This document shows positions 16,763 through 31,692 of a stretch of 64,000 nt of DNA, one piece after another (position 1 is the first letter of the stretch; every line of letters begins with the position of its first letter). Below the pieces are notes generated by a model, which was not told the origin of the DNA, did no database searches, and saw only the letters and a list, made by a program, of their open reading frames with translations. Position numbers and translations under genes: made by a program. The DNA lies in the sequence record PP301341.1; one strand, 5' to 3'. The DNA is from Escherichia phage UE-S5b.

Positions 16763-19700
16763 TTGAACAGGAAACATGCTATGTCAACATTTGACCGTCT
16801 GGCAGGTTTCGCAGACAGCATCACTAATGCTAAGCAAGTCGATGTCTCTACTGCAACCTCTCAGAAGCAAGCTGCACAAGGGCAAAGCCCTTCCCAATTA
16901 ACCCCAGAGAATGCTTACAATCTCCAAACTGGTCGTGTAGGTAATCTTGGAATCGGTGCATTCGAACCAGGTTCACTTCAGGCAGATTTCACGCAAGCCT
17001 CCCCATTAGAAATTCTTAATAAATACGGTAATGAGCAAGGTCTACAGATTCTTAATAGCCGGGCTAATGCTGCTGATGCTGTACGTCAGGACTTATCTAA
17101 ACAACGTACTAACGCAGAAGCATTTGGTGATACTCTTTCTGGTGTTGGTCTTGGTGTTGCTAATACCCTTGGGGGCATTGCTGCTCTTGGCACAGGTCTG
17201 GTCAATGATAATGCCGGGGCATCCATTGCTTCCGGTATGGATTGGCTGAATGAAGGGGTACACAATCTACAGTCTGATGCTCTGAATGCTACCCGTAAGG
17301 TTGTTCAGAATCAGAACCAGATTTCTGCACAAAAGAACCAGAAACTCTACGAAGAAGACATTAAAAATGGAGAGAGCAGTTTGGTTGCCTCTCTGTCTCG
17401 TATTGGTCGTGATGCTTTTGATTCTGTTGCTAATACGCTTGATAATGGTATGGCTGCTACTGATGGGCTGAGTGAAGGTGTTGGTTCTCTCTTTACCGGT
17501 GGTCCATTAATTCGTGGTGTATCTGCACTCGGTAAAGTAATGGTAGGTGGTGATAAAGCTGTTAAGGGTATTACCTTAGCTGCTGAGTTAGGTTCACGTC
17601 CTGCACAGGTTGCATTGTCTGCTGGTCGTGTTGCTGCACCTGCTATTGCAATTGGTGGTATGGAAGCTGGTGGTGCATACCAACAGACTGCTTCCGAAAT
17701 CATGAAGATGTCCCATCAAGAATTGGCAAGTAAGTCTCCTGTTTATCAACAGCATATCGCTGATGGTTTATCTCCTGATGAAGCACGTCGCCAAACTGCA
17801 TCTGAAACGGGTATCATTGCTGCTGGCTTAACTGCTCCGGTTGCTGCTGCTACTGGTCCTCTGGTATCCAAATTTGAACTTAACCCACTTAAGGTAGGTT
17901 CGCTGGCTGGTGCTGGTTCTAACATGCTACGTGAAACAGTAGAAGAAGGTATTCAGTCTGGTACAAGTCAGTTTGCACAGAACAAGGCAATTCAGGGTAA
18001 TGTAGATGCTAAGCGTGATTTGCTTAAAGGTGTCGGTGAGCAAGCAGGTCTTGGTGCACTCTACGGCTTCGGTAGTGCTGGTGTTGCTCAGGCTCCAGGT
18101 ACAACTGTTAAAGCTGTTGGTGCTTCTGCTGGGCCTGCTTTACGTACTACTCTGGCTGGTGCTTCTCTGGTTGGTAGTGCATTAGCAAAAGCTGCCTCTC
18201 CTATTACTAACATCCTGGTTCAGCGTGGCGAAGAAGTTGCTAAGCGTAATGAACAAGCTTCCCCTGTATCTGATGCTACGGTTAATGCTGCTGCACAAGA
18301 AGCTACTGCTCAAGCAGAACAAGCACAAGCAACTGTACAAGAAGCAGTAGATGCAATGGATATTTCTCCTGAAGAGAAAGCTGCTGCTACTCAGTATGCT
18401 GCTGACTTAACTCAGGCAATGAAATTTGACCCAGTAGAACTGGAACAAGCTAACCCAGCAATCCGTGAAGCTGTTTCTGGTTCCACTAACCGTGTTGAAG
18501 CTATTCAGAAGATGGCTGACCTGGTTAATACTGCCGAAGACCCTAACGTTCAAATGGAAGCTGCAATCCAGATGTATGACAACATCATGTCTATGGATAG
18601 CTTCATTAACCGTGATCCTGGTGCTTTAGCTAATCTGGAACAGGGTTCTCCTGCTGCTAATATTGTTGACCAGTTCTCCGGCCTGATGGCTAACGTTCAG
18701 AATACACCAAAGGTACTTCGTGCATTCCGTGCCATCCATTCTATGATTCAGGAACAGGCTGAAGCAGGTAAACTGAAAGCTACCGAAGAAGCTAACCAAG
18801 CCCAAGCAAACAACATTGCTATGGCTGCTGATATGTCTCCAGAAGTACTGGATGCAGACTCAGTGAACATGGTTCTGAAACATGCAAGTGAAGGTAAGAT
18901 TACACTGGGGAATCGTCAGCGTGCTGCCCTGCAATCTGCTGCTGCTCTATTGCAAGGAGCACGAGAATTTGACGCTAAAGCAGAAGAACTAGGCTTACGT
19001 CCTCAAGACATTGTTAGTAAACAGATTAAAACCGACGAGTCTCGTTCTAATGAAGGTCAGTACTCTGCGTTGCAACATGCTAAACGCATTCGTTCTGCGT
19101 ACAACTCTGGTAACTTCGATTTGGCTTCCGCTTACCTCGACGACTTTATGAAGTTCGCCCAGCACATGCAGAATAAGGTCGGAGCGTTGAATGAGCATCT
19201 GATTTCTGGGAATGCGGATAAGAATAAGTCTGTCCATTATCAGGCTCTTACTCCCTCCCGTGAATGGGTACGTAGTCGTACTGGTCTTGGTGTCAATCCG
19301 TATGATACCAAGTCGGTTAAGTTTGCCCAGCAAGTAGGACTGGAGGCCAAAACCGTAGCTGATATTGCTAACGCACTTGCTACGGCTTACCCGGAGCTTA
19401 ATGTTTCTCATGTGAAGGTTACTCCATTAGATTCACGTCTGGACAAGCCTGCTGCCCAGGTAGTTAAAGAGTTCCGTCAAGGTGGTCTTGATGCCACTCA
19501 GTCTCAACAGACCAATGAACCAGTGAATCAGGTTGATGAAACTCCTGCACCAGCGCAAGAGACTACTACTACTGTACAGCCTAAAGCTAAACCAGTGGTA
19601 GAAAATAAGACTGTTCCTGTTAAAGAGGCTAGTTCAAAAGCAGAAGAAGTCTCTACTACTAAGTCTGAAACAGTAGATGCTACCCTCACCAATGAGGATA

Positions 19701-22700
19701 CCACTCAAAAAGTAGCTGAAACTAAAACGGAAATGGAAACAGTTTTCCCTGTCTATAACAATGACAAGACACCGAACCAGTTCCTGAAATCATTTACCCT
19801 GCCGGAAGAACCTAAGTCTCGCACCATTGGTTCTGAATCCCCTTTGACTGATATTAAGCAAGCACTGTCTTCTACTGCACGCTTTGAAGCATTCACTCAA
19901 AAAGAAAATAACGCTCTCACAAGTGATGTGATTAAGCGTTATCAGGACTTAATGGGCTTTGGTGAAACTCTGAAGACTACTCTGTCTGATCGTCTGGCTA
20001 AGTTTCTTGCTAATAAGAACGTTGGTAAACGCTTTGCAGAAGGCACAGAGGCTAACCGTTGGGTAGGTGGTAAGTTACTTAATATCGTAGAGAAAGACGG
20101 AGACACCTTTAAGTTCAATGACCAGTTGTTAGAGACTGCTGTACTTGCTGGTCTGCAATGGCGACTGACTGCTACACAGAATGCTGCTGTTAAAGACATG
20201 AAAGATGTAGCTGCTATTACTGGAGTAGAAGCATCCTTGTTACCTGAAGGTATCCTGGCTGAATTTGAGAATGCTCAGACTCTGGTTGAAGCTACTAACT
20301 CACTGGCTCAAAAGATTGAATCTTACTGGGGATTGAATCGTAATCCTAATGCACCACTGGGTTATACCAAAGGTATTCCAATGGCAATGGCTACAGAGAT
20401 TCTGTCTTCTCTCATTGAGATGGGTGAAGTTAAAGAGTCTATGCTTGATGTGTCTGAGATTGACCCAGACTCTAATAAGACCGTCGGTCTGTATACCATT
20501 GAGAAGCTGGATGATAACGATGCCATTAACAAGTTCCCTACTGCTATCGAGGAAGCTGTTCTCGTAGAACCAGAAGAGAAAATGTACTTTGGTGATGATA
20601 TTCCTTCCGTGGCTCAAACTCAGTTACGTAACCCTGCTGTTAAGAATACCCCAGAGCAGAAAGCTGCTCTTAAAGCAGAACAGGCTACCGAGTTCCGTGT
20701 ACACATGCCGATGGTTAACTTCTATGAAGCATTAGGTCGTGACAACATTCTGGAACTGATGGGTGCTGGTACTCTTAATCCTGAACTGCTGAACGTGAAC
20801 ACTGCTAAGTCACTGGAGGGTAAAAACCTGTCAGTGTCTATGGCATATGATTCCCTGTTCGGTGTAATCAACCAGTTACAGGAACAGGAGAATGGTCTGG
20901 ATACGCCTATTCACTATGGTTACAACATGACCCGTGTAGGTCGTATGCAGATGTTAGGTAAGAACAACCCACAGTCCAGCAAGCTGGTTCGTGAAGCAAT
21001 TCTGCCAACCTTCTCTACTATCGACTTAAGTAATGAAAACAGTCAGACGTTCTCTGATTTCCAGTTAGGTCTGTCTCAGGCATTAGGTATCAAGGTTCAT
21101 AATATGTCCCGTGAAGCTATGTCTGAAAAACTGACCAAAGCTCTGGAAGGTAATTTGAAACCTGCTGTTGATATGATGGTTGAGTTTGATAAGTCCGGGC
21201 ACTTACCAGCCGATGCAGTAGATATTCTTAAGACATCTCTGGGTGGTGATAAATCATTCGTAGCTCTTATGGCTCTTATGGAGTATGCCCGTTACCTGAA
21301 CAGTGATGACCGTGCCAACTTTAATACCCCACTGTACGTTGAAGCCGATGGTGTAACCAACGGACCAATCAACGCAATGGTATTAATGACTGGTGGTAAG
21401 TTCACTTCAGACTGGATTAAGAATACTGCTAAAGGTGGTCTGTTCTTCGGTAAAGCTGGTAAGACTATGAATGAACATCGTTCACAGGATGACAGTGTTG
21501 ACCTGTATGAAGCATCTACCAATGGTCTGCAACAAGCACTTAATGAGTTACGTACTACTTACCGTAACAACGTTCCGGTTATGAACCAAATGAATCATCT
21601 TCAGAAGTTAATGGACCTGTTTATTAAAGACTTTAACCTGAATGAAGACGGTACTCTGGACCTGAAACGTGGTATCGCTAAAAACCCACTGACCATTACC
21701 ATCTATGGTTCAGGTGCTCGTGGTATTGCTGGCAAGATGGTTAGTGCAATTACTGACACCATCTATGAACGATTCAGTGATGTTCTGCAAGCTCGTGCTG
21801 CTGACCCTAGTATTTCCCCAGCTATGGCAATGTTTGGTAAGGAGGCTGCGTCTGAGGCTGATGCTCAGGCTATGCTGGATACTTTCCTTACTTCTATGGA
21901 AGCACTGACTGGTAATGTTCCAGTTATGCGTAAAGGTGAATTGTCTATTCAACAGGTAGAAGGTGCTCTGACTGGTAAGTTAGACCCTCAGAAGTTTACC
22001 GTATCGGGTAATGCCCTGAAGAACTTACAAGAGAACATGCTTCACCTGTTCGTTGAACCAATGCGTACTGGTATCCGGAATACTGTTGGGGAAGGTCTGA
22101 TGCATTCTACTGAGAACTTGCAGAAGGCTACCCAGATTCAGTCTTTGGTTCTACAAGACATGTTCCAACAAGCAGTACAGGCTAAGCTGGCAGAAAAAGA
22201 AAAAGACCCAACCTGGAAGAAGGGTGATTTCTTAACACAGAAAGAACTGAATGAAATTCAGGAATCATTGTCTCCACTGGCTCCAATGATTGAGACTGGT
22301 TCACAGACTTTCTATATTGCTGGTAGTGAGAATACTGATGTTGCTAACCAGGTACTGGCTACCAACTTAGATGACCGTATGCGTGTGCCAATGAGCATCT
22401 ATGCTCCTTCTCAGGCAGGCGTTGCAGGTATTCCATTTATGACCATTGGCACTGGTGATGGCATGATGATGCAGACCCTTTCTACTATGAAAGGTGCTCC
22501 GAAGAATACCCTGAAAATCTTTGATGGTATGAACATTGGTATCAACAACATCACTGATGCAAGTCGTAAAGCTAACGAGGCTGTATACACTTCCTGGCAG
22601 GGTAACCCTATCAAGAATGTTTATGAGTCTTTTACTAAGTTCATGAAGAACGTAGACTTCAGCAAACTATCTGATGAAACCAAACAGGCTATCGCTAAAT

Positions 22701-25700
22701 CTGCTCTGGAATATGACCAGCGTGAAGGTGCTACCGATGACCTGTTACGTGTTGGTGCTGAACAGATTGAACGTAACCTGCGTAATATTGCTCTGGGTGT
22801 AGATATTCGTCACAAAGTAATGAACCAGGTACAGACTACTGTTGACCAGATGGCTGCTGTTGGTGCTCCTTATGTGAACAACGGTAAAATCTCTCTGGAA
22901 GGTCTGACCGTAGACCAACAAGTAGCTAAGCTAAATGAACTGTTCGATGCTGAATTAAACAAACGTCGTGATGCAGTACGTGCTGCTAAAGTAGAACCAG
23001 TGAAAGAAGTGCCAGCAATGGAACAGGTTGGTCGTGTACTGAAGTCTGGTGTACGCCTACTGTCTAATACTGCTATCTCTAAGCTGGCTAAAGAGATGTC
23101 TCCGGAACAGCAAGCAGTACTGAAAGAAGTACAGAAATCCCTTGCTGCTAAAGACTATAAGGTTGTTTACGGTACACCTTCCCAACTGGATGCTTATGCT
23201 ATTGAGAAGAATATTACTCGCCCAGCACCAGAAGATATTGAAGCTGCTGAAGCTGGTAATGCGTATGGTTGGACTAACTTTGAAGATAAGACCATCTACT
23301 TAGTTACCCCTTCCTTAGAGACTCTGGTTCATGAATTGGTGCATGCTTCTACTTTTGAATCTGTACTGGCTCACTATGAGGGTACTCCTAATGAAGCGGT
23401 CCAGAACATTGAAGACCTGATGAACCAGTTCCGTGCTCTGGATGTTAAGGATGAATCCCCGGCAGTTCGGGAAGCATATGCAGATGCTCTTAATACTATT
23501 AACGGTCATTTATCTAATGGCTTTATTGAGCCAGCAATGGCTAAAGCTGCTGCACTGAATGAGTACATGGCATGGGGTTTAACCAACCGTGAACTGATTA
23601 GTAAGCAGAAGAAAACCACTGCACTTAAGACTATGGTTCAGGCTGTATATGAAGCAATTAAACGTCTGGTATTCGGGCGTAAGAAAGCACCAGCTAATGC
23701 AGATGATATGTTCTCTGGCTTACTGTTTAACTCGTCCGTAGTTATGCGTGGGCAAGCTCCTACTGCTGCTGTAGCCAAAGATACTACTCTGTTCCATAAC
23801 AAAACGTATGGTGACAATACTCGTCTGGAAGAGCTAGGGAAAACCTTCGATAAACTGATTACTGACTACATTGGTTCTGAACCAGTACAGCAAGTAATTC
23901 GTAAAGGTAAGTTCTCTGATGCAGTGGTTAATGCGACTAAAGTAACTCGTGATGTTCAGGCTCATGGCTTCACTATGAATATGCAGGAACAACGTCTCTT
24001 TACTAACATTGTTGCTGCTCTGGCTACTGAGGCTGCTATTAATCCTGCTGCTCTGGCTCGTGCGCAGGAATACTACACACATGTTACTAAGAACCTGACC
24101 GTTGAGTCATTCATGNCTGACCCAGATAGTACTAACCCTGCTGACCGTTACTATGCACAGCAGAAGTTCGATACCATCATGGGTGCTAACAACATTGAGT
24201 TTGATTCACAAGGTCGTTCCTCCTTACTGCCTACCTTTATTGGTCTGGCGATGGTAAGTGAAGAGGTACGTAAAGTGCTGGCTGATATTCCAGTTATGAA
24301 AGTAGACAAGAAATCTGGCAATACCGCTGATGCAATGCTGACTAACATCGGTACTGCTGCAATGGCTAGTCTGAATGCTCGTGTAGCAGGAGATACTAAA
24401 GCTACCAACGTACAGGAAGGTATGGATGCACTGGCTCAGACAATCATGCAGACCAGTCTTAATGCACAATCCTTCTATGATTCCGTTGCTACTCCTACGG
24501 GTAATGCTATTGATCGTGCTAACCAGTATCTGGTGGACTCTATTGATGTACTGTCTACCCGTGCTTTAGAAGGTGCTCGTGAAGTTGCAGCTAATACCAA
24601 GAACCCGTTGGTTAAAGGTGCTGCCCATGCTGCACAATTAATAGCTGCTATTGCTACAGAGAAGAATGGTGCAATCGTAGCCGAAGGTGTTATGGCTGCA
24701 ATGAACCAGGGTAAGGTATGGCAACCTTTCCATGACCTGGTTAATGACTTAACTGGTCGTACTAAGAGCAATGCTTCTGTATATGATTTGATTAAAGCAG
24801 TGCGTGCACAGGTACAGGCTGACCGTCAACAGTTCCGTGAACATCTGCCCACCACTATTGCATCTAAGTTCAGCCGTAAGCTTACTAATGATGAGTGGAA
24901 AGCAATGCATACCGGTATGGGTAAAACCGACTTAGCTGTTCTGCGTGACACTATGTCTCTGGGTGAAATTCGTGACTTGCTGACTGACCAAAAGATTGTT
25001 GACCGTGAAGTGAATAAGCTGGAAGCAGATTTGCAGAAACAAGCAGGACGTAACTGGCCTTTGATTAGCCGTAAATCTAAGCAACTGGCTCAGTACATGA
25101 TTAATGGCACAGTTGGTAATAACTTGCTGCGTAATGCTACTGCAATCTCTCGTATGCTGGGTGAACGACAGGCTGCACGTTCTACTGTAGACGTAGCTCA
25201 ACTGGATAAACTGATTACTCTGTATGCACTGGAAGCAATGAGTAAGACTGACCGTGAGATGTTATCTTCACTGGCTCAATCAGAGATTGAAGGCATGGAC
25301 TTCGCTACTTCTTATCTGGTTGGTCAGCGTAAAGATGAAATGGCTAAAGCCAAATCTGATACTCGTGCAACTCTGAACCAGTACAAAGGGTATATTCCTG
25401 GTGAGACTAAACAGGGTGTTAACTTGATTGTTGCTGAAGATAGTCAGTTTGCTGATTTGATTGAGAAGTCCTATGTACGTCTGGGTACTTATCAGGGTAG
25501 CTCTGCTAATCGTGGTCCAGCACGTAGCTACTACTTTGCACCGGTACAGGCACAGGCTCCATTCTCGCAAGGTATCTTACAGAACGTTCGCAATACTGCT
25601 GGTGGTGTAGACCTTGGTACAGGCTTTACGATGGGTACAATGGTAGCTGGTCGTATCACTGACAAGCCTTCTGTAGACCGTATCACTAAAGCACTGGCTC

Positions 25701-27133
25701 GCGGTGAACGTGGTAATGAACCACTGCTGCCTGTATATGATGATAAAGGCAATGTGGTTGCTTATGAGCAATCTATTGACCCTAACATGCTGAAGCACAT
25801 TGAGGGTGAGAACCATCTCGCTCGTGCAATCGGTGTATGGCGTGGTCGTCAGGTAGAGGAAGCTAAGGCTCAGCGTTTCAACGATATGCTGATTGAGAAC
25901 CTGCATAGCATGTATAAAAACGACATTAAAATGTCTGCCTCTAACAAGTCACAGTACGTTAACCTTCTTGGTTCTAAACTGGACCCAGTAACTGCTGATG
26001 CCCTTAAGCTGATGAACAGTGAAACTCGTCAGAAAGCAGAAAGTCTGTTTGGTCCTGGTGAGTTGTGGGTACGTCGTGACATGCTGAATGATGCACTGGG
26101 CTATCGTGCAGCTTCCGTAGGTGATGCCTGGTCTGGCAATTCTCGTTGGTCACCAGAAACACTGGATACCTTCAAGAAAGCTATGTTGGGTGTATTCGGC
26201 AACCGTGCTTATAAGTATGTAATGGGTGGTGAGAACCTGGTTCAAAACTTAGTTAAAGAAGCCAAAACTCTGATTGTAGTTAAGTCAGTAGTTGTTCCTG
26301 CTGTTAACTTCCTGGCTAACCTTTACCAGATGGTTGGTCGTGGTGTACCTGTTAAGAACATTGCTAAGAGCATTCCACAGAAGACTGCTGAGATTAACCA
26401 GTACCTGAAATCTCGTCTGCGTCAGGTAGATGCAGAAGCAGANTTACGTGCAGCTACTAACCCGAACCAGATTCGTAAGCTTAAGGCTGAAATTCAGTCC
26501 ATCACTGATAGTCATAAGCGTATGAGTATCTGGCCTCTGTTAGAAGCTGGTGAGTTTTCTTCAATTGCAGATGCTGGTATTGGACGAGATGACATCCTGA
26601 TTACTGAAGGTAAACTTCACGAATACATGGATAAACTGGCTGATAAGTTACCTAAGTCTGTACGTAATGCTGGACGTTATGCCCTTATCACCAAGGATAC
26701 TGCTTTATTCCAGGGTATCCAGAAGACGGTTGAGTACTCTGACTTTATTGCTAAAGCAATCATCTATGATGATTTGACTCAGCGTAAAGGTAAGACTCGT
26801 GAAGAAGCACTTGGACGTGTAACGGAAGAGTTCATTAACTATGACCGTCTGCCTGGTCGCTTCCGTGGGTATATGGAAAGTGTTGGTCTTATGTGGTTCT
26901 ATAACTTTAAGATTCGTTCTGCAAAAATTGCAGTATCCATGATTCGTAACAACCCGGTACACGCAGCTATGGCTATGTTGGCTCCAACTCCTACCATGTT
27001 TGGTAATGTTGGTTTACCTATTCAGGACAACATCTTCAGTATTGCTGCACAAGGCAATCTCGGTTACTCCTGGGGCTTCGGTCAGGGACTTCGTGCCCAT
27101 AACCTTAACCCTTGGCTCAATCTAGCTAACTAA
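16763..27133 (+). CDS. virion-encapsidated RNA polymerase (vRNAP, N4 gp50-like)
   Basis: Single 3456 aa ORF, the hallmark giant protein of N4-like phages; last gene of the late operon; contains T7-RNAP-like motif B-like segment (PLTITIYGSG). Three isolated N. Confidence 0.9.
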   Translation: MNRKHAMSTFDRLAGFADSITNAKQVDVSTATSQKQAAQGQSPSQLTPENAYNLQTGRVGNLGIGAFEPGSLQADFTQASPLEILNKYGNEQGLQILNSRANAADAVRQDLSKQRTNAEAFGDTLSGVGLGVANTLGGIAALGTGLVNDNAGASIASGMDWLNEGVHNLQSDALNATRKVVQNQNQISAQKNQKLYEEDIKNGESSLVASLSRIGRDAFDSVANTLDNGMAATDGLSEGVGSLFTGGPLIRGVSALGKVMVGGDKAVKGITLAAELGSRPAQVALSAGRVAAPAIAIGGMEAGGAYQQTASEIMKMSHQELASKSPVYQQHIADGLSPDEARRQTASETGIIAAGLTAPVAAATGPLVSKFELNPLKVGSLAGAGSNMLRETVEEGIQSGTSQFAQNKAIQGNVDAKRDLLKGVGEQAGLGALYGFGSAGVAQAPGTTVKAVGASAGPALRTTLAGASLVGSALAKAASPITNILVQRGEEVAKRNEQASPVSDATVNAAAQEATAQAEQAQATVQEAVDAMDISPEEKAAATQYAADLTQAMKFDPVELEQANPAIREAVSGSTNRVEAIQKMADLVNTAEDPNVQMEAAIQMYDNIMSMDSFINRDPGALANLEQGSPAANIVDQFSGLMANVQNTPKVLRAFRAIHSMIQEQAEAGKLKATEEANQAQANNIAMAADMSPEVLDADSVNMVLKHASEGKITLGNRQRAALQSAAALLQGAREFDAKAEELGLRPQDIVSKQIKTDESRSNEGQYSALQHAKRIRSAYNSGNFDLASAYLDDFMKFAQHMQNKVGALNEHLISGNADKNKSVHYQALTPSREWVRSRTGLGVNPYDTKSVKFAQQVGLEAKTVADIANALATAYPELNVSHVKVTPLDSRLDKPAAQVVKEFRQGGLDATQSQQTNEPVNQVDETPAPAQETTTTVQPKAKPVVENKTVPVKEASSKAEEVSTTKSETVDATLTNEDTTQKVAETKTEMETVFPVYNNDKTPNQFLKSFTLPEEPKSRTIGSESPLTDIKQALSSTARFEAFTQKENNALTSDVIKRYQDLMGFGETLKTTLSDRLAKFLANKNVGKRFAEGTEANRWVGGKLLNIVEKDGDTFKFNDQLLETAVLAGLQWRLTATQNAAVKDMKDVAAITGVEASLLPEGILAEFENAQTLVEATNSLAQKIESYWGLNRNPNAPLGYTKGIPMAMATEILSSLIEMGEVKESMLDVSEIDPDSNKTVGLYTIEKLDDNDAINKFPTAIEEAVLVEPEEKMYFGDDIPSVAQTQLRNPAVKNTPEQKAALKAEQATEFRVHMPMVNFYEALGRDNILELMGAGTLNPELLNVNTAKSLEGKNLSVSMAYDSLFGVINQLQEQENGLDTPIHYGYNMTRVGRMQMLGKNNPQSSKLVREAILPTFSTIDLSNENSQTFSDFQLGLSQALGIKVHNMSREAMSEKLTKALEGNLKPAVDMMVEFDKSGHLPADAVDILKTSLGGDKSFVALMALMEYARYLNSDDRANFNTPLYVEADGVTNGPINAMVLMTGGKFTSDWIKNTAKGGLFFGKAGKTMNEHRSQDDSVDLYEASTNGLQQALNELRTTYRNNVPVMNQMNHLQKLMDLFIKDFNLNEDGTLDLKRGIAKNPLTITIYGSGARGIAGKMVSAITDTIYERFSDVLQARAADPSISPAMAMFGKEAASEADAQAMLDTFLTSMEALTGNVPVMRKGELSIQQVEGALTGKLDPQKFTVSGNALKNLQENMLHLFVEPMRTGIRNTVGEGLMHSTENLQKATQIQSLVLQDMFQQAVQAKLAEKEKDPTWKKGDFLTQKELNEIQESLSPLAPMIETGSQTFYIAGSENTDVANQVLATNLDDRMRVPMSIYAPSQAGVAGIPFMTIGTGDGMMMQTLSTMKGAPKNTLKIFDGMNIGINNITDASRKANEAVYTSWQGNPIKNVYESFTKFMKNVDFSKLSDETKQAIAKSALEYDQREGATDDLLRVGAEQIERNLRNIALGVDIRHKVMNQVQTTVDQMAAVGAPYVNNGKISLEGLTVDQQVAKLNELFDAELNKRRDAVRAAKVEPVKEVPAMEQVGRVLKSGVRLLSNTAISKLAKEMSPEQQAVLKEVQKSLAAKDYKVVYGTPSQLDAYAIEKNITRPAPEDIEAAEAGNAYGWTNFEDKTIYLVTPSLETLVHELVHASTFESVLAHYEGTPNEAVQNIEDLMNQFRALDVKDESPAVREAYADALNTINGHLSNGFIEPAMAKAAALNEYMAWGLTNRELISKQKKTTALKTMVQAVYEAIKRLVFGRKKAPANADDMFSGLLFNSSVVMRGQAPTAAVAKDTTLFHNKTYGDNTRLEELGKTFDKLITDYIGSEPVQQVIRKGKFSDAVVNATKVTRDVQAHGFTMNMQEQRLFTNIVAALATEAAINPAALARAQEYYTHVTKNLTVESFMXDPDSTNPADRYYAQQKFDTIMGANNIEFDSQGRSSLLPTFIGLAMVSEEVRKVLADIPVMKVDKKSGNTADAMLTNIGTAAMASLNARVAGDTKATNVQEGMDALAQTIMQTSLNAQSFYDSVATPTGNAIDRANQYLVDSIDVLSTRALEGAREVAANTKNPLVKGAAHAAQLIAAIATEKNGAIVAEGVMAAMNQGKVWQPFHDLVNDLTGRTKSNASVYDLIKAVRAQVQADRQQFREHLPTTIASKFSRKLTNDEWKAMHTGMGKTDLAVLRDTMSLGEIRDLLTDQKIVDREVNKLEADLQKQAGRNWPLISRKSKQLAQYMINGTVGNNLLRNATAISRMLGERQAARSTVDVAQLDKLITLYALEAMSKTDREMLSSLAQSEIEGMDFATSYLVGQRKDEMAKAKSDTRATLNQYKGYIPGETKQGVNLIVAEDSQFADLIEKSYVRLGTYQGSSANRGPARSYYFAPVQAQAPFSQGILQNVRNTAGGVDLGTGFTMGTMVAGRITDKPSVDRITKALARGERGNEPLLPVYDDKGNVVAYEQSIDPNMLKHIEGENHLARAIGVWRGRQVEEAKAQRFNDMLIENLHSMYKNDIKMSASNKSQYVNLLGSKLDPVTADALKLMNSETRQKAESLFGPGELWVRRDMLNDALGYRAASVGDAWSGNSRWSPETLDTFKKAMLGVFGNRAYKYVMGGENLVQNLVKEAKTLIVVKSVVVPAVNFLANLYQMVGRGVPVKNIAKSIPQKTAEINQYLKSRLRQVDAEAXLRAATNPNQIRKLKAEIQSITDSHKRMSIWPLLEAGEFSSIADAGIGRDDILITEGKLHEYMDKLADKLPKSVRNAGRYALITKDTALFQGIQKTVEYSDFIAKAIIYDDLTQRKGKTREEALGRVTEEFINYDRLPGRFRGYMESVGLMWFYNFKIRSAKIAVSMIRNNPVHAAMAMLAPTPTMFGNVGLPIQDNIFSIAAQGNLGYSWGFGQGLRAHNLNPWLNLAN

Positions 27134-27135
27134 AT

Positions 27136-27170
27136 GAAAAAGCCCCTCATTAGAGGGGCTTTAATTTTTA
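27136..27170. terminator. bidirectional rho-independent terminator at the convergent junction
   Basis: AGCCCCTC-ATTA-GAGGGGCT flanked by an A-run upstream and T-rich downstream; serves the vRNAP gene (+) and the DUF2829 gene (-). Confidence 0.7.
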
Positions 27171-27671
27171 CTAAACTAACACCCAGTCTTCAGCTAATAT
27201 ATCTGATTGGGATGGGACCCAAGGCATAAACTGGTCATCAACAGTTTTGATTCCTAACCATGGACGAGGTTTCAATTCATCAGCAAGTCCTGGACGCTCT
27301 AAGCTACTGCTATTCCATTCTTGAGCAGCAACGTACTCAATGTACATTCCTTTACCATTCCAGCCTTTACGGGCTAGTTTGAAGCCGGATTTGAGAAGCT
27401 CTACTGCATGACCAAAGGTGCAACCTTTTTCTACGTCATGGTACGCAGTTTCAAATGCAGATTTAGGTGACCAGCTAATATAGCCACGGAACTGAGGATG
27501 GTTAGACTTAGAGTCTGGGTACTCTACTAAGTAACCTTCTTCTAATGGGTCTTCATTAGCAGGTACATCCCAGCCACGAAGTTTGCAGTATGTTTCTTTG
27601 TTCATTCGGAAACCATTTACACACTTGGTTCCGATATAATTGGTAAAATGGACTTTAATTTCTTCTGACAT
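27171..27671 (-). CDS. DUF2829-like (Tad2-like) domain protein, candidate anti-defence protein
   Basis: C-terminal half FGHAVELLKSGFKLARKGWNGKGMYI...PWLGIKTVDDQFMPWVPSQSDILAEDWVLV matches the DUF2829 pattern as I recall it; ATG at 27671 preceded by GAGGT, whereas the track start at 27698 is GTG inside a hairpin. Confidence 0.6.
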   Translation of the reverse strand: MSEEIKVHFTNYIGTKCVNGFRMNKETYCKLRGWDVPANEDPLEEGYLVEYPDSKSNHPQFRGYISWSPKSAFETAYHDVEKGCTFGHAVELLKSGFKLARKGWNGKGMYIEYVAAQEWNSSSLERPGLADELKPRPWLGIKTVDDQFMPWVPSQSDILAEDWVLV

Positions 27672-27686
27672 AACTACCTCAAATGA

Positions 27687-27720
27687 GAAAGCCCTCACTA
27701 GGAGGGCTTGTTTTGTTTTG
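27687..27720. terminator. GC hairpin plus U-tract (strong in + orientation, weaker in - orientation)
   Basis: AAGCCCTC-ACTA-GGAGGGCTT followed by GTTTTGTTTTGG on +; lies between the gp49-like gene and the DUF2829 gene. Confidence 0.5.
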
Positions 27721-27789
27721 GCTTCATGAGCCTTACCACATGTCGGGTAGTTCAGTACCTTTCGGTAAAAACTACCTTACACTTTTGAA

Positions 27790-28170
27790 TCAGATTGTAC
27801 AACCACCACCATCACAGGTGTTGTTTTCTGCAAAGGAAGCCAGAGCTTTAGCAGTCTCTTCTTTCTCATGCAGTGCCTGACGTAGCAGGTAACCTTCTAA
27901 TTCCCAAATCTTATTGAATGCATTTTCATATGCATACTGACGGCCTTTTTGCTCATCATAGATAGCTGGGTCAACACAGGCAGATACACCTTCAACTTTG
28001 AAGCCATTTTCCAAGATGATAATGCAATAGGTTATNAGACCCAGGTTAGCCAAATCATCTGCCGGGAGTGCAGATGGATCAACAAATGCAGACTTCACTG
28101 CATCAGCTCCATTAAAATAGTAGACGCTCTTAATCTTAGCTTCGATTGCTTCTTTACTTACTGTTGCCAT
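27790..28170 (-). CDS. N4 gp49-like protein (Phage_gp49_66 family candidate)
   Basis: About 126 aa, adjacent to vRNAP as gp49 is in N4; ATG at 28170 preceded by GAGG; contains one X. Confidence 0.5.
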   Translation of the reverse strand: MATVSKEAIEAKIKSVYYFNGADAVKSAFVDPSALPADDLANLGXITYCIIILENGFKVEGVSACVDPAIYDEQKGRQYAYENAFNKIWELEGYLLRQALHEKEETAKALASFAENNTCDGGGCTI

Positions 28171-28339
28171 TATTAGCCTCATAGAGTGGTTTGAGTTTGT
28201 ACTTAAACATGACTGCGTTGTTATAGGCTACGCTACCTGCAAACACCAAAGACTTGCGTCCTCGATTATCCGTTACCTCATAGGCATACGGGGTTGAGAT
28301 TAGGTCAATCATATTGATTATCCAATTATTAATACTCAA
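28154..28339 (-). CDS. small hypothetical ORF (doubtful)
   Basis: 61 aa ORF with TTG start and no Shine-Dalgarno; overlaps the gp49-like start. Confidence 0.25.
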   Translation of the reverse strand: MSINNWIINMIDLISTPYAYEVTDNRGRKSLVFAGSVAYNNAVMFKYKLKPLYEANNGNSK

Positions 28340-28340
28340 A

Positions 28341-28376
28341 TAAAAAAGTCCCCCAGAGTGACGGCTCCAGGGGACT
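28341..28376 (-). terminator. putative terminator downstream of tRNA array
   Basis: GTCCCC/GGGGAC stem with 16 nt loop; followed by a U-run on the - strand. Confidence 0.4.
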
Positions 28377-28620
28377 TAGTACTATTTACCCATAGCTGGG
28401 AGGCTTTTGGTTCTTACCACGAAGACAGTCCACGCTGACNAGNCTTGGGATTGATAGTCCCGTTCCTGTGGTAATTACTCAGGCTAGGATTTAAGGAGTT
28501 CCTATTCTCCAGCGAAATTCCCGTCGANGGGAATAACAATACAATAGCAGNCACTGGACTGTCTTACCAGTGTTGTCTTTAGAGTGCNATGCAATCAGGA
28601 CTATGTTACTGCTGAATGGG

Positions 28621-28694
28621 TGTCCACTACTGGATTTGAACCAGTGACTTTCCGATTATTAGTCGGTTGCTTTCCCCGTCTAAGCTAAGTGGAC
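28621..28694 (-). tRNA. tRNA gene, canonical cloverleaf, anticodon loop CUAAUAA (apparent anticodon AAU, identity uncertain)
   Basis: Hand fold of - strand: acceptor GTCCACT/AGTGGAC (7 bp perfect), D-arm GCTT/AAGC, T-arm ACTGG-TTCAAAT-CCAGT, anticodon stem CCGA/TCGG. Confidence 0.55.
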
Positions 28695-28700
28695 TTATTA

Positions 28701-28776
28701 TGGTTACCCAGGCAGGATTCGAACCTGCGTCCTAGTTGGTTTACTAGTGGGGCTTTACCACTAAGCCTACTGGGTA
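28701..28776 (-). tRNA. tRNA gene with encoded CCA; anticodon loop appears 6 nt (AAACCA), identity unresolved
   Basis: Hand fold: acceptor TACCCAG/CTGGGTA, D-arm GGCT-TAGTGGTAA-AGCC, T-arm GCAGG-TTCGAAT-CCTGC, 3' ACCA; anticodon stem CTAGT/ACTAG leaves a 6 nt loop. Confidence 0.55.
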
Positions 28777-28779
28777 TTA

Positions 28780-29640
28780 ATAGGGGAGTCATGCCAGGCT
28801 TTAACTGGCTCCTTCTTCGCAATCCTTACATACCCCTACATAATTATTGCGTTAAGCTTTTTTGTTTAAGTTTAAGTGAAGGCGTTCTTGCTGACTCATA
28901 ATAGAGTGGGCGTTTGACGAATGACTAGTTCGTTACTACCCGTTTGCCATAAGTACCTGGCGACTTTGGTTTGAGGTGGGAGTCCGAGTCCTGTACAGCC
29001 TTACCGTTCACACATTGGCAGCGTATCTAGAGTTGCACTTCCGGCAACTGGATTTAACTGTTACACCTCAAATAGGCAGTGGGGGATGGAATCGAACCAT
29101 CAGTATTAAGTCTTATTCGTGCACCAAGCACGCTAGTAGATTACTCTACCGGAGGGAATCGAACCCTATCTACTTCACCAGACCCACCATAATTCTTCCA
29201 ATTTAGAGTAGCATTGTCACGGTGGGTGCTTTAAATGCCGGGAAACATTTAAATATACAATGCTACTTTGAATTGGTTATCAGTGAAGGATTCGAACCTC
29301 CGGTTGGAGTCTATAGCTTACCGCAGCAGCCCTCCAATCTAGCGGTGTCACACTTAGTCCAAACTTGAACATGTCAAGCCATCTCGTGCAACTGATAATT
29401 GGTTCCGGCGTCTGGACTCGAACCAGAACACTCATGCCGTGCACGACACTAGTACCTACACCGGAATTAATTGCCAGGGATTCCACCTGGCTCCATCTGT
29501 TTTTATAGTCACTCAGATATCGTCTGGACTGTAGGCATGGGTGGGAATCGAACCCACAAACCATTCAGCACTGTAGCCTCACGCTCTACCTATTTGAGCT
29601 ATCACATACCATTGATTAACTCCCCGTTTCTAATACATGG
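28780..29640 (-). other. array of tRNA-like elements (at least five more T-arm signatures), several with non-canonical lengths
   Basis: T-arm signatures on - strand at 29085-29101, 29152-29168, 29285-29301, 29411-29427 and 29541-29557. Perfect acceptor-type 7 bp pairings at 29278-29284/29391-29397 (120 nt apart) and 29404-29410/29459-29465 (66 nt element ending in CCA). A D-arm-like GCTC-AAATAGGTA-GAGC lies near 29585-29601. Confidence 0.4.
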
Positions 29641-29649
29641 ACGGGGACA

Positions 29650-30290
29650 CTCCACGGTCGTTTGATAATCAGGACGACTCACTCCTGACTGACGCTTGGC
29701 TTATTAGGCTGCCATCAGAACAACATCATCGTTTGCATTTATGTTATTGGTTCGTTTCTAAAAAACCGCATAATCGCTTACGAAAACTATCAAAGAGTAC
29801 ACTAGCTCTGGGCCACGCTTGTGGANATCGGCCTACCTTCCACAGCTAATCAACTAATGCACTCACTGATAGCCCATAATAGGGGGGAGGGGACGAATCC
29901 TCCCTTTATACCCTATATTGCATGTAAGATCTAACAGTTCGATGTTGTAGGTAGCTAGGCTATCCGACATTTAACCCAGCCCATATAGGGGCTTATGTGA
30001 TTAGAATGCTCAACATTGAGCGGTTAGTTTGATAAGGGATCTGAAGCCTTATCCTAAAGATACTAACCTTTGGGATATAGCCTAAGATTCAGAAATGGCC
30101 CCTATAGGAAGAGGCCATTGATTAACCCGAATGTTGCTTTACATTTTCTGTGATAACCGATTCTTAAAATAGTCTGTCTGACGGATGGGGGGCCACCCCT
30201 AGCGTCAGTGCCATACGGCAAAGATTAAGTTAAGAAAGGTTATGATAGGAGTTCCTATCTCAAAGGATTCTAACAGAACCCTTCACGATA
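29650..30290. promoter_or_regulatory. non-coding region with repeated GCCCATA(A/T)AGGGG-type palindromic motifs and hairpins
   Basis: Motif at 29871-29892 and 29978-29993 and in inverted orientation at 30097-30108 within hairpin AATGGCC...GGCCATT; GGGG-CCA-CCCC at about 30187-30198; no convincing ORF. Confidence 0.3.
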
Positions 30291-30692: not shown

Positions 30693-31136
30693 TTAACTAC
30701 GTTTAAGGCCAGCGAACAGTGAAGGTTTCGCAGCAGGTTTCTCTGCTGGTTCTTCAGCCTTAACCTCTTCCTGCACAACTTCTTCTTGTGCTTCTGGTTC
30801 AGTTACTGCTTCTTCTTCAGGTTCCGGCGTAGAACTCTCGTTCGGACCACCAGTAGAGGTCTGGATTTCTTCTCCCTTTACCNCTTCAACCACTTCTTCT
30901 GGTTCCGGTTCTACCGGACGGTGTTTAGCTTCCTGAGGGTTCTTACGAGAACGACGTGTCTTCTTCTCTACCAAGGGCGGAGTATCATCGTTATGACTTA
31001 CCTCTTCGTTAATACCAACGGAGGCTGTACCATCTGCATTGATGACAATACTAATGTCTCCAGCAAGATTGATTTGATCATCGACATAAGCCTGTACAGC
31101 AGCTTCTACTTCGGACTGGTTCAAAATGATTTGCAT
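30693..31136 (-). CDS. acidic low-complexity protein, hypothetical
   Basis: 147 aa, Glu/Pro-rich C-terminal half (PEPEEEAVTEPEAQEEVVQEEVKAEEPAEKPAAKP). Confidence 0.5.
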   Translation of the reverse strand: MQIILNQSEVEAAVQAYVDDQINLAGDISIVINADGTASVGINEEVSHNDDTPPLVEKKTRRSRKNPQEAKHRPVEPEPEEVVEXVKGEEIQTSTGGPNESSTPEPEEEAVTEPEAQEEVVQEEVKAEEPAEKPAAKPSLFAGLKRS

Positions 31137-31137
31137 A

Positions 31138-31692
31138 TTACGCCTTTATTAAATTAAGAAGGTTTTGGAAAGCTGGGAGATTTACACCAGCGTGGATTGC
31201 ACCGATTGCATCTGCTAAGTGCTCATTCTTATTCAGAAGTTTACCTTTTTTATCTGTGAGCCAGTTGGCTTCTGGATAGATAGCATGGGCAGCACGAATC
31301 ATCGTGTCTTTGGATGCAGTTTTATCACCGACCAGTGCAAGTTTATTTTCAATTGGGGATACTTCAAAGATTGGACAACCCAATGCACGAAATGCACCAA
31401 TTAATCCTACGCATACGCCATAGGATTTCATACCGTTAGCAGACTGAGAGCCTACTGGTACTTCTACGAATACTGCTTTAGCAGACCGTAACCATTCTTC
31501 ACAACCAAGAAACAAATCGTGAGCGGCTTGTATATCTTTGGAGTTGGTTCGAACTTGTTTGTTGTGGTCAACTTCAGTTTGAACCAGTTTAAGTTCGACC
31601 TGCTCGAAGACGCCGGACTCAATGTCCAGCATCCCACGAGCTAAACCCCAATTGCGGAGACTAATGTCTGCACCAACAATTGGGATTTTCAT
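31138..31692 (-). CDS. RuvC-like Holliday junction resolvase
   Basis: N-terminal MKIPIVGADISLRNWGLARG and C-terminal EHLADAIGAIHAGV resemble the RuvC/RNase H-fold resolvase pattern. Confidence 0.6.
   Translation of the reverse strand: MKIPIVGADISLRNWGLARGMLDIESGVFEQVELKLVQTEVDHNKQVRTNSKDIQAAHDLFLGCEEWLRSAKAVFVEVPVGSQSANGMKSYGVCVGLIGAFRALGCPIFEVSPIENKLALVGDKTASKDTMIRAAHAIYPEANWLTDKKGKLLNKNEHLADAIGAIHAGVNLPAFQNLLNLIKA

Follow-up and report, generated by a model that had tools for sequence, protein, structure and literature searches.

A two-domain Tad2-like gene next to the virion RNA polymerase gene of the N4-like coliphage UE-S5b encodes a candidate signal sponge

Introduction

The Tad2 proteins characterised so far, SPO1 Tad2, ModTad2/MoTad2, HgmTad2 (AcrIIA7) and SptTad2, are single-domain proteins of about 90-104 aa that share a fold and the pocket motif W-N ... 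W-x-P-S-x-S/T-D. In SPO1 Tad2, gcADPR is contacted by W25, N26, I63, T65, D67, W73, S76, T78 and D79, and the equivalent residues W21/N22 and S90/T92/D93 of HgmTad2 are needed for binding. ModTad2 has the same pocket residues, yet its ligand is His-ADPR and it does not counteract type I Thoeris, and conservation of the pocket is therefore no predictor of the ligand.

Larger architectures have also been described. RyR Tad, gp68 of Pectobacterium phage CB1, combines an N-terminal domain with a C-terminal sponge for ADPR signals, which is an all-helical RyR repeat (PF02026), and its gene lies next to the primase gene in an N4-like hotspot (Fedorova et al., 2026, preprint). The crystal structure of its N-domain is a domain-swapped dimer with a five-stranded sheet. 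Multi-sponge fusions (Tad2-Acb4, Tad2-Sequestin and Acb4-Sequestin; Tal et al., 2025, preprint) string small sponge domains together in the same modular way. Tad2, Acb4, Sequestin and Bes1 were reported from an 'anti-signalling hotspot' that lies between the primase and virion RNA polymerase (vRNAP) genes of N4-like phages, and most of these hotspots were reported to have Bes1/RuvC orthologues. The Acb4 family corresponds to PF13876 and includes N4 gp48, a published cyclic-nucleotide sponge that was named Acb4 and triggers Panoptes.

Here we compare these systems with a gene of Escherichia phage UE-S5b, a G7C-like (Gamaleyavirus) N4-like coliphage. The window, i.e., the whole stretch of 64,000 nucleotides that was analysed (PP301341.1), had received an initial annotation made from the sequence alone, in which this gene was described as a terminator-insulated DUF2829 (Tad2-like) insertion next to the vRNAP gene.

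Results and Discussion

Identity and Neighbourhood of the Gene

The features of the locus are listed in Table 1. The open reading frame runs from an ATG at 27671-27669 to a stop codon at 27173-27171, contains zero ambiguous bases, is preceded by a Shine-Dalgarno sequence (GAGG) at 27677-27680 and encodes 166 aa, in which all motif strings quoted in the initial annotation are present. An identical protein is public as a UE-S5b 'hypothetical protein', and other members of its cluster are listed as 'Thoeris anti-defense 2-like domain-containing protein'. PHROG 872 matches over the full length (1.3e-65). In the initial annotation this position seemed to have no gene in N4, but N4 gp49 (YP_950527.1; 34003-34485; 'DUF2829 domain-containing protein' in RefSeq), which shares the two-domain architecture and 77% of its residues with the UE-S5b protein, is encoded at the same place between gp48 (Acb4) and gp50 (vRNAP), 37 bp from the latter. 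The argument from positional novelty fails because the gene is the orthologue of gp49, which adjoins vRNAP in N4 too, and an insertion without N4 counterpart is ruled out. Orthologues are present in N4-, G7C- and KP8-like phages. Both domains have a dN/dS of 0.02-0.18, and the gene is under strong purifying selection in both.

Table 1. Coordinates of the features at the Tad2-like locus of phage UE-S5b (positions in the window).
Feature	Position	Strand	Basis or remark
Virion RNA polymerase, N4 gp50 orthologue	16763..27133	+	3456-aa ORF; annotated vRNAP in relatives
Bidirectional intrinsic terminator, vRNAP (+)/Tad2-like gene (-)	27139..27162		Scan and folding
Two-domain gene, N4 gp49 orthologue	27171..27671	-	N-terminal module and C-terminal Tad2-like sponge domain
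Tad2-like (DUF2829) domain, aa 84-166	27174..27422	-	Pfam, solved-structure matches, Foldseek, pocket residues
Insertion loop of the Tad2 domain, aa 112-137	27261..27338	-	Two unrelated alleles among close relatives
N-terminal module, aa 9-80	27432..27647	-	beta-beta-alpha-beta-beta-alpha fold; ~25 near-invariant residues
Structured intergenic leader (acb4 3'UTR and tad2-like 5'UTR)	27672..27789	-	Alignment and folding
Upstream terminator-like hairpin HP3	27689..27709		Bounds the variable cassette slot on the left
Acb4-family cyclic-nucleotide sponge, N4 gp48 orthologue	27790..28182	-	Pfam PF13876, 1.3e-25; adjoins upstream
RuvC-like gene, N4 gp46 position, counterpart of hotspot 'Bes1'	31138..31692	-	phrog_159 RuvC-like resolvase, 3.3e-42

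The junction was correctly described as convergent, with vRNAP ending opposite the Tad2-like gene. The upstream neighbour, labelled 'gp49-like' before, is instead the orthologue of N4 gp48 and thus Acb4 (47% identity); the Pfam name of PF13876, which mentions N4 Gp49, misleads here, and the neighbour being N4 gp49 itself is ruled out. The gene is located inside the published N4-like anti-signalling hotspot, of which vRNAP forms one boundary.

The Tad2-Like Domain

The Pfam profile PF11195, named DUF2829 before and 'Tad2-like' now, covers aa 85-166 with positions 2-73 of its 73 and scores 85.9 bits (E=2.8e-24; cut-off 25 bits), which bears out the family membership proposed initially. A phmmer search against solved Tad2 chains gave matches from 1.7e-20 to 2.7e-9, including ModTad2 (9eib/8v3e, 1.7e-20) and SPO1 Tad2 (8sme, 5e-13), and identity to the characterised members is 36-48% over the C-terminal 83 aa. 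MoTad2 is the closest solved relative. The AF2 model of the 166-aa protein has a pLDDT of 89 and shows the order H-E-E-H-E-E-H-E from aa 86 on. Foldseek matched it to 24 Tad2 chains in the PDB with probability 1.0 and target-normalised TM of up to 0.89; for the crystal structures 8sme, 8smf, 8v3e and 8wje this TM was 0.81-0.89.

The contacts of SPO1 Tad2 correspond to W104, N105, I141, T143, D145, W151, S154, S156 and D157, and nine of the ten mapped gcADPR-pocket residues are identical or conservative. SPO1 Tad2 H71 corresponds to M149, at a site that is M or V. W104, N105, T143, W151, S154 and D157 are invariant in 61/61 two-domain homologues. By profile, sequence match to solved structures, predicted fold and pocket residues, the C-terminal half is a bona fide Tad2/DUF2829 domain.

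These matches also extend to AcrIIA7 chains (9kzr, 1.8e-11; 8kbi, 5e-11), and the orthologues of Mimir124 and Huey are annotated as 'anti-CRISPR protein', so that an anti-CRISPR of the AcrIIA7 type has to be considered, as some automated annotations have it. E. coli is not known to carry a type II-A CRISPR-Cas system, which counts against such a function. Moreover, Cas9 inhibition by AcrIIA7/HgmTad2 could not be repeated by Li et al., who demonstrated that the protein is a gcADPR/CDN sponge, a view shared by Yirmiya et al. An anti-CRISPR function therefore seems extremely improbable, and we judge the label on the orthologues to be an inherited AcrIIA7 annotation of an activity that was irreproducible according to Li et al.

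The Variable Insertion Loop

Among close orthologues, the loop at aa 112-137 is only 37% identical, versus 72-85% in the core. One allele is found in UE-S5b and Bas96 and the other in N4, PhAPEC7, 24-32N and Moonfish; dN is ~1.3 between the alleles, and dN/dS is 0.08 within the UE-S5b allele. The insertion has about the length of that of ModTad2. In HgmTad2 and MoTad2 the corresponding region forms a second (CDN/cUMP) pocket: in HgmTad2 and SptTad2 the insertion mediates binding of cGG and 3'3'-cGAMP, and MoTad2, which binds cUMP/cCMP at the A-C interface, inhibits one E. coli and one Bacillus Pycsar system.

These precedents, and two swapped alleles of an insertion of ModTad2 length as expected of a specificity determinant, could imply that in E. 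coli the sponge is directed through its loop pocket at Pycsar cCMP/cUMP or at CBASS/c-di-GMP cyclic dinucleotides rather than at Thoeris. However, the canonical ADPR pocket is invariant in all homologues, which implies that it is in use, and cyclic dinucleotides are already covered by the adjoining Acb4. The loop is also the part of the AF2 model with the lowest confidence (pLDDT ~57), and none of the cUMP or CDN pocket residues could be mapped onto the protein. It thus seems unlikely that cyclic nucleotides are the targets instead of Thoeris signals.

The N-Terminal Module

The initial annotation recognised an extra N-terminal domain of about 80 aa, which corresponds to the conserved module at aa 9-80, but described it as free of recognisable motifs. 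In fact, it has a highly conserved motif set (NYIGTK, RGW.P..E, EGYLVEY and GYISWSPK..FE..Y) with ~25 near-invariant residues, polar and aromatic, across phages of Proteobacteria and Firmicutes. The AF2 model of the monomer has four strands and two helices. Sequence searches of Pfam, NCBIfam and the PDB with the module gave no match, and it lacks a Pfam entry. It is the sole unexplained part of the Tad2-like gene.

An HMM of the module matched CB1 gp68 (RyR Tad) at aa 18-80 with E=6.8e-10 among 1140 ORFs, and in the reverse search CB1 gp68 matched phrog_872 and phrog_9467 at ~3.6e-7. In BFVD, Foldseek found an RyR-domain protein of Yersinia phage TG1 (probability 1.0, query-normalised TM 0.68). 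The module is thus homologous to the N-domain of RyR Tad. The two proteins share the layout of N-module and C-terminal sponge for ADPR signals and are both encoded in N4-like hotspots, but the sponge domain is an RyR repeat in one and Tad2 in the other, and the UE-S5b gene adjoins vRNAP and not primase.

Across phages, the module is fused, in any order, to Sequestin, Tad2, Acb4, the Acb2/Tad1 hairpin or RyR, e.g., as N-Acb4-Sequestin in inbricus and as Acb4-N-Sequestin in a metagenomic protein, and it also occurs as a stand-alone protein of 73 aa. It thus occurs inside some multi-sponge fusions; in the UE-S5b protein it is itself the partner of Tad2 and has no demonstrated ligand, and Acb4, fused in such proteins, is a separate neighbouring gene. 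The module is found in ~2,600 clusters at 50% identity. The profile used in the search of 1.84 billion proteins kept 130 positions, including some C-terminal columns, and the top matches therefore favour fusions to Sequestin and Tad2, a bias that does not account for the Acb4, Acb2/Tad1 and RyR partners. Hadary et al. screened 84 sponges, and the N-domain motifs are absent from all of them (0/84).

Considering its homology to a dimerising domain, the module most likely adds oligomerisation or a second activity. A bolder and more doubtful possibility is that these 72 residues are an anti-signalling domain themselves, i.e., a new sponge for a signal outside those assayed so far or a domain that binds some component of host immunity, and not a mere dimeriser. 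The pattern of guilt by fusion is the same signature that led to Sequestin; such a function would have been overlooked because the module lacks a Pfam entry. The N-fragment of CB1 gp68 was negative against type I Thoeris, which is the sole negative test; this fragment is a divergent copy that lacks several residues invariant in the main family (R32, W34, E50, N57 and K70).

An Exchangeable Cassette Slot

Among 54 Gamaleyavirus records, the slot contains the Tad2-like gene in ~31 and a gene for a 77-aa protein, with or without Sequestin, in ~20, and it is empty in 3. Combined contents were found in Moonfish and 24-32N, other genes in G7C, PW8, nithesis, pSb-1 and PD205, and an empty slot in U1G and HK2. 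Sequestin, one of the alternative contents, is a sponge for 3'cADPR. The slot is bounded by two similar terminator-like hairpins and, as its content varies among the 54 records, it represents an exchangeable cassette at the genus level. The comparison of the junction across relatives thus gave a mixed picture: presence of the gene varies within Gamaleyavirus, but an orthologue is conserved in N4-, G7C- and KP8-like phages.

The unit resembles phage morons and hotspot cassettes in its polymorphic presence or absence, single gene with its own Shine-Dalgarno sequence, bounds of terminator-like hairpins and position at a convergent junction. It differs from morons in that no sigma-70-like promoter was found in the unit, the upstream bound is itself a terminator-like hairpin, and the gene is ancestral enough to be common to N4.

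The conserved position next to vRNAP in N4-, G7C- and KP8-like phages, in a block of genes for replication and recombination that includes SSB and the RuvC-like gene, might point to a housekeeping role in N4-type development, e.g., in replication, recombination or NAD/ADPR metabolism, and the likeness to Tad2 would then go no further than a common small-molecule-binding fold. Bes1 and Bes2, two published proteins of the hotspot, may have a role without being inhibitors per se. Yet the gene is dispensable, being absent from the slot in ~23/54 Gamaleyavirus genomes, three of which have an empty site. The same two-domain protein also occurs at other positions in unrelated P22-like, Vibrio and Pseudomonas phages, and the fusion partners of its two domains are almost exclusively known sponge domains. 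A housekeeping role is therefore quite improbable.

Hairpins, Leader and Expression

The initial annotation described the gene as bracketed by two strong GC hairpin terminators. Both hairpins exist, but the downstream one is the stronger. It has a 10-bp stem with 6 GC, a dG of -18.1/-18.5 kcal/mol and a z of -4.8/-4.9, with tails AAUUUUUAC (+) and UUUUUCAUUU (-); the T-run on both strands makes it a bidirectional terminator that serves vRNAP as well as the Tad2-like gene. It is conserved in PhAPEC7 and G7C and annotated there as a terminator. The upstream hairpin, HP3, has an 8-bp stem and would be a weak terminator on the strand of the gene (dG -12.7, z -2.5), where the U-tract of its tail UCUCAUUU is interrupted; the better U-run, GUUUUGUUUU, belongs to the + strand, on which there is no gene end at this place. 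With this tail and an end only 17 nt before the ATG, the term 'insulated' was too strong. HP3 and the downstream terminator are ~75-80% similar, tail included, and HP3 could also be aligned with the lone hairpin that marks the 'empty site' in phage U1G. The region contains 12 terminator-like sites versus 4.3 expected.

HP3 is part of a structured leader, in which HP1 (27746-27776, with a GAAA loop), HP2 (27720-27732) and HP3 are followed by the Shine-Dalgarno sequence. The leader has an MFE of -43.9 (z -4.1) and is nearly invariant in an alignment of five phages, while the flanking coding sequences vary; over 54 records its identity is 84-100%, mostly 93-98%. A search of the leader against Rfam gave no family, only tRNAs and sub-threshold matches. 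N4 gp48 and gp49 have overlapping ORFs, and of the two phages only UE-S5b has the structured 118-nt leader and the upstream hairpin.

N4 middle genes are transcribed by the phage's T7-like RNAPII. A scan for sigma-70-like promoters on the - strand of 27672-27789, which does not cover N4 RNAPII promoters, found none, and the 17 nt between HP3 and the ATG leave no room for a promoter. If HP3 terminated the acb4 transcript, with no promoter after it, the gene would be poorly expressed or silent cargo. Against this stand the strong purifying selection on both domains, the good Shine-Dalgarno sequence and the interrupted U-tract on the strand of the gene; N4-type RNAPII promoters and termination lie outside the scan model, and in N4 the two overlapping ORFs have no hairpin between them. 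Silent cargo is thus very improbable. HP3 might nevertheless limit expression of the gene.

Proposed Function

The Tad2 domain, the adjoining Acb4 sponge and the location in an anti-signalling hotspot make the anti-defence role suggested in the initial annotation the best reading. The purifying selection and Sequestin as an alternative content of the slot also speak for a sponge. Judging from sequence comparisons and models, we propose, with a probability of about 0.72, that the gene encodes a Thoeris-type signal sponge with Tad2 pockets, a loop pocket and the N-module, which would act beside Acb4. It lies directly downstream of acb4 in the same direction and would be expressed with the rightward (early/middle) transcription unit to give a cytoplasmic product. 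Like SPO1 Tad2 and ModTad2, the Tad2 domain should assemble into a tetramer of two V-shaped dimers with two inter-protomer pockets, lined by W104/N105, I141/T143/D145 and W151/S154/S156/D157. In SPO1 Tad2 the tetramer interface is formed by helix alpha1, and because the N-module is joined to this helix by a short linker, the assembly could differ from that of SPO1 Tad2.

The pockets are predicted to bind ADP-ribose-derived signals made by TIR proteins, namely 3'cADPR (= 1''-3' gcADPR) and/or His-ADPR or N7-cADPR, and sequestration would keep these under the level that activates Thoeris effectors. The loop probably forms a second pocket, of the kind that takes cyclic di- or mononucleotides in other Tad2 proteins, and its two alleles may set a second specificity. 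The N-module, as a homologue of the dimerising N-domain of RyR Tad, would add oligomerisation or a second activity. Together, Acb4 and the Tad2-like sponge would cover CBASS-type and Thoeris-type signalling.

Implications

If the proposed function is correct, adjacent Acb4 and gp49/Tad2 sponges that would blunt CBASS-type and Thoeris-type immunity are present in N4, a model phage for 60 years, and in the G7C-like phages related to it, which serve as candidates for therapy against UPEC and APEC. Presence of the gp49 cassette, or its loop allele, could then explain differences in host range between near-identical phages, and the cassette could affect sensitivity to systems that sense sponges, e.g., Panoptes. 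Finally, since the partners of the widespread, Pfam-less N-module (~2,600 clusters) are almost exclusively nucleotide sponges, this module is a specific candidate, inexpensive to follow up, for a further anti-signalling activity.

Identity and Genomic Position of the Gene

All motifs quoted in the initial annotation are present in the translation of the open reading frame. The recognition of DUF2829 in its C-terminal part is borne out by a Pfam search, which assigns aa 85-166 to PF11195 ‘Tad2-like’ (E=2.8e-24), and comparison with PDB chains (phmmer) retrieved ModTad2 (9eib/8v3e; 1.7e-20), SPO1 Tad2 (5e-13) and AcrIIA7/HgmTad2 and SptTad2 (1e-11 to 1e-9). Structure prediction agrees, as the AlphaFold2 model based on a 94-sequence alignment (mean pLDDT 89) matched 24 Tad2 chains at a Foldseek probability of 1.0, with target-normalised TM scores of 0.81-0.89. 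None of the 64 ambiguous bases scattered over the window lies in the gene; examples elsewhere are 28036 in acb4 and 24116 and 26443 in the gene for the virion RNA polymerase (vRNAP).

The earlier view that N4 has no gene at this position is incorrect. N4 gp49 (NC_008720, 34003-34485), annotated as ‘DUF2829 domain-containing protein’, directly adjoins the convergent gp50 vRNAP gene and is 77% identical to the window protein over the full length. The neighbour that had been called gp49-like aligns instead to N4 gp48 (47% identity); here the Pfam name of PF13876, which mentions ‘N4 Gp49’, misleads and disagrees with N4's own gene numbering. Chang et al. identify the members of PF13876 as Acb4 sponges for cyclic nucleotides, and N4 gp48, Acb4(N4), is both required for triggering Panoptes and sufficient for it (PMC12657230). 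Since the neighbour is acb4 and the studied gene is of the N4 gp49 type, the order of the locus is acb4, gp49-type gene, convergent vRNAP. Judged by family membership, two putative sponge genes lie side by side.

The region 26600-28400 is 99.4-99.9% identical to Escherichia phages PBM-2/3, UE-S5a, UE-M3/M6 and PGN829.1, and 86-92% identical to PhAPEC5/7, ECBP1, Bp4, IME11 and other members of Gamaleyavirus (Schitoviridae, Enquatrovirinae) in megablast searches. The primase-to-vRNAP interval of N4-like phages was described as an ‘anti-signalling hotspot’ containing Tad2, Tad3, Acb4, Sequestin and the RuvC-like Bes1 (Fedorova et al., 2026 preprint). Two genes of the window are positional counterparts of the published ‘Bes1’ and ‘Bes2’, the first by position and RuvC similarity and the next one by position alone. 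Between them and acb4, about 1.8 kb (28400-30250) holds no convincing ORF; its counterpart in N4-like phages is the tRNA region that separates gp47 from gp48.

Features of the locus (window coordinates unless a locus handle of a relative, L, is given)
Feature	Position	Strand	Basis or remark
vRNAP, 3456-aa ORF	ending 27133	+	ORF call, relatives' annotation
Bidirectional terminator, 10-bp GC hairpin	27139-27162	both	dG about -18, z about -4.8
Studied gene, 166 aa	27171-27671	-	ORF; GAGG Shine-Dalgarno precedes
Variable loop, aa 112-137	27261-27338	-	
Intergenic leader, 118 nt	27672-27789	-	more conserved than flanking genes
Upstream hairpin HP3, 8 bp	27689-27709		tail UCUCAUUU on gene's strand; ends 17 nt before ATG
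Acb4-family cyclic-nucleotide sponge gene	27790-28182	-	PF13876 match; N4 gp48 orthologue
tRNA-Ile	28619-28694	-	
Odd tRNA-like gene	28701-28776	-	2-nt ‘anticodon’ call
tmRNA-like matches	29541-29806		sub-threshold
Candidate ‘Bes2’ counterpart	30693-31136	-	position
RuvC-like gene	31138-31692	-	phrog_159 similarity
77-aa gene of relatives (MTQVSITSVVREAILNNTVRTYSFDEI...)	L010 (PW8):828-1061; L012 about 795-1050; L013:822-1055; L014:827-1060		conserved

An Exchangeable Slot Behind a Conserved Leader

Both hairpins said to bracket the gene were found, but ‘insulated’ is too strong a term for the upstream element. The downstream hairpin has T-runs on both strands and is therefore a bidirectional terminator, common to vRNAP and the studied gene. 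The leader is 84-100% (mostly 93-98%) identical in 54 Gamaleyavirus records, and its fold (dG -43.9, z -4.1) consists of three hairpins, one of which has a GAAA loop. It matched no Rfam family. Its upstream AACUACC could pair within hairpin HP1 (27746-27776) or with the Shine-Dalgarno region GAGGUAGUU.

In the same 54 records, the content of the slot between leader and vRNAP varies. About 31 records contain the studied gene, the criterion being a match that extends across its RBS. G7C, PW8, nithesis, pSb-1 and PD205 have a 77-aa gene, either by itself or together with a 68-aa Sequestin-like gene; Moonfish and 24-32N have both kinds of content, and in U1G and HK2 the slot is empty. The 77-aa gene, which fills the slot in G7C-type genomes without the Tad2-like gene, is unannotated in G7C itself and gave no Pfam match in the two copies scanned (24-32N Gp55 and Moonfish gp17). 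The 67-aa Moonfish gp16 (L002:3070-3273), from this slot too, has a match to Sequestin (PF21825), but its annotation reads ‘putative ATPase subunit of terminase’; PW8 (L010:1054-1260) and nithesis (L011:1053-1259) have 68-aa genes, annotated as hypothetical, that resemble it by eye alone.

U1G has one hairpin, in which the flank upstream is that of HP3 and the stem and tail are those of the vRNAP terminator, and the two hairpins of the window are about 75-80% alike, tails included. This agrees with cassettes being gained and lost between terminator-like repeats. The likeness might also have arisen by convergence, as similar terminators occur elsewhere in the genome.

Pocket, Variable Loop and Predicted Function

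In SPO1 Tad2, gcADPR is contacted by W25, N26, I63, T65, D67, H71, W73, S76, T78 and D79 (Yirmiya et al.). HMMER alignment gave as equivalents, in the same order, W104, N105, I141, T143, D145, M149, W151, S154, S156 and D157, six of which are invariant in 61/61 two-domain homologues examined; homologous residues of HgmTad2 are required for binding (Li et al.). Purifying selection is strong on both domains (dN/dS 0.02-0.18 in comparisons with five relatives). The identity of the ligand is not readable from this conservation, because ModTad2 has retained this pocket although its ligand is His-ADPR and it does not counter type I Thoeris, and other individual Tad2 proteins bind N7-cADPR, cUMP/cCMP or cyclic dinucleotides.

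Between the conserved halves of the domain, the loop is only 37% identical among close orthologues, compared to 72-85% in the core. It occurs as two unrelated alleles, one common to the window and Bas96 and the other to N4, PhAPEC7, 24-32N and Moonfish. The two alleles have diverged to saturation (dN about 1.3), and selection within an allele is purifying (dN/dS 0.08). The alleles cut across genus boundaries, with N4 pairing with PhAPEC7 and UE-S5b with Bas96, which suggests recombinational swapping of a putative specificity loop. The corresponding region of HgmTad2 and MoTad2 forms a second pocket, and by analogy it is reasonable to infer that a change of allele would swap a second specificity.

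Public databases contain the identical protein as a UE-S5b hypothetical protein; its cluster mates, and likewise Moonfish gp18, bear the label ‘Thoeris anti-defense 2-like domain-containing protein’. Some pipelines label orthologues ‘anti-CRISPR’, which we reject as inherited from AcrIIA7, whose activity was not reproducible (Li et al.). Our literature search yielded no experimental work on N4 gp49 or any protein joining the N-terminal module to Tad2. We conclude that the gene is real and under selection, that it encodes a Tad2-family protein orthologous to N4 gp49, that its neighbour within an already described anti-signalling hotspot is an Acb4 gene and that it is exchangeable within the genus. 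Its most likely predicted function is that of a sponge for TIR-derived ADPR signals (probability about 0.7).

The N-Terminal Module

The N-terminal domain had no match in Pfam, NCBIfam or PDB sequences, and about 25/72 of its positions are ≥90% invariant in 94 sequences. Its HMM matches the N-terminus of Pectobacterium phage CB1 gp68 (E=6.8e-10), the published ‘RyR Tad’; in the reverse search CB1 gp68 matched PHROG 872, to which the studied gene belongs, and PHROG 9467. In BFVD, the domain model (pLDDT 89) matched an RyR-domain protein of a Yersinia phage with probability 1.0. The N-domain of RyR Tad forms a domain-swapped dimer in the crystal and alone has no activity against type I Thoeris. 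However, the CB1 copy lacks several residues that are invariant in the main family, and this negative test is therefore not decisive.

Searching 1.84 billion cluster representatives with the profile gave 2,620 matches at E ≤1e-3. Among the best 146 of these, 70 also carry PF21825, the family of the 3'cADPR sponge Sequestin (Tal et al.), 41 Tad2, 18 Acb4 and 2 the Acb2/Tad1 hairpin. The module occurs on either side of Tad2 (N-Tad2, Tad2-N), in N-Sequestin, N-Acb4-Sequestin (phage inbricus), Acb4-N-Sequestin and N-Acb2/Tad1-Sequestin, and also alone (73 aa). From this co-occurrence and these architectures, the module is dedicated to partnering nucleotide sponges. It may serve in oligomerisation only or may bind a ligand itself.

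The Bas96 orthologue (L006:2371-2868) has ACG where the ATG start is expected, and its CDS is annotated from the internal Met23, a start that would cut the module short; the cause is either a knockout of the N-domain that arose naturally or an error in sequencing. PhAPEC7 gp82 (L004:2073-2561) carries Y12N, M23I, E50V and S68L at otherwise invariant positions, which may reflect decay of the module in that lineage. In a 354-aa metagenomic protein (P0286), an HNH + AP2 homing-endonuclease-like segment appears to split the module from Tad2. It is this sponge-associated N-terminal module that is the part still worth pursuing.
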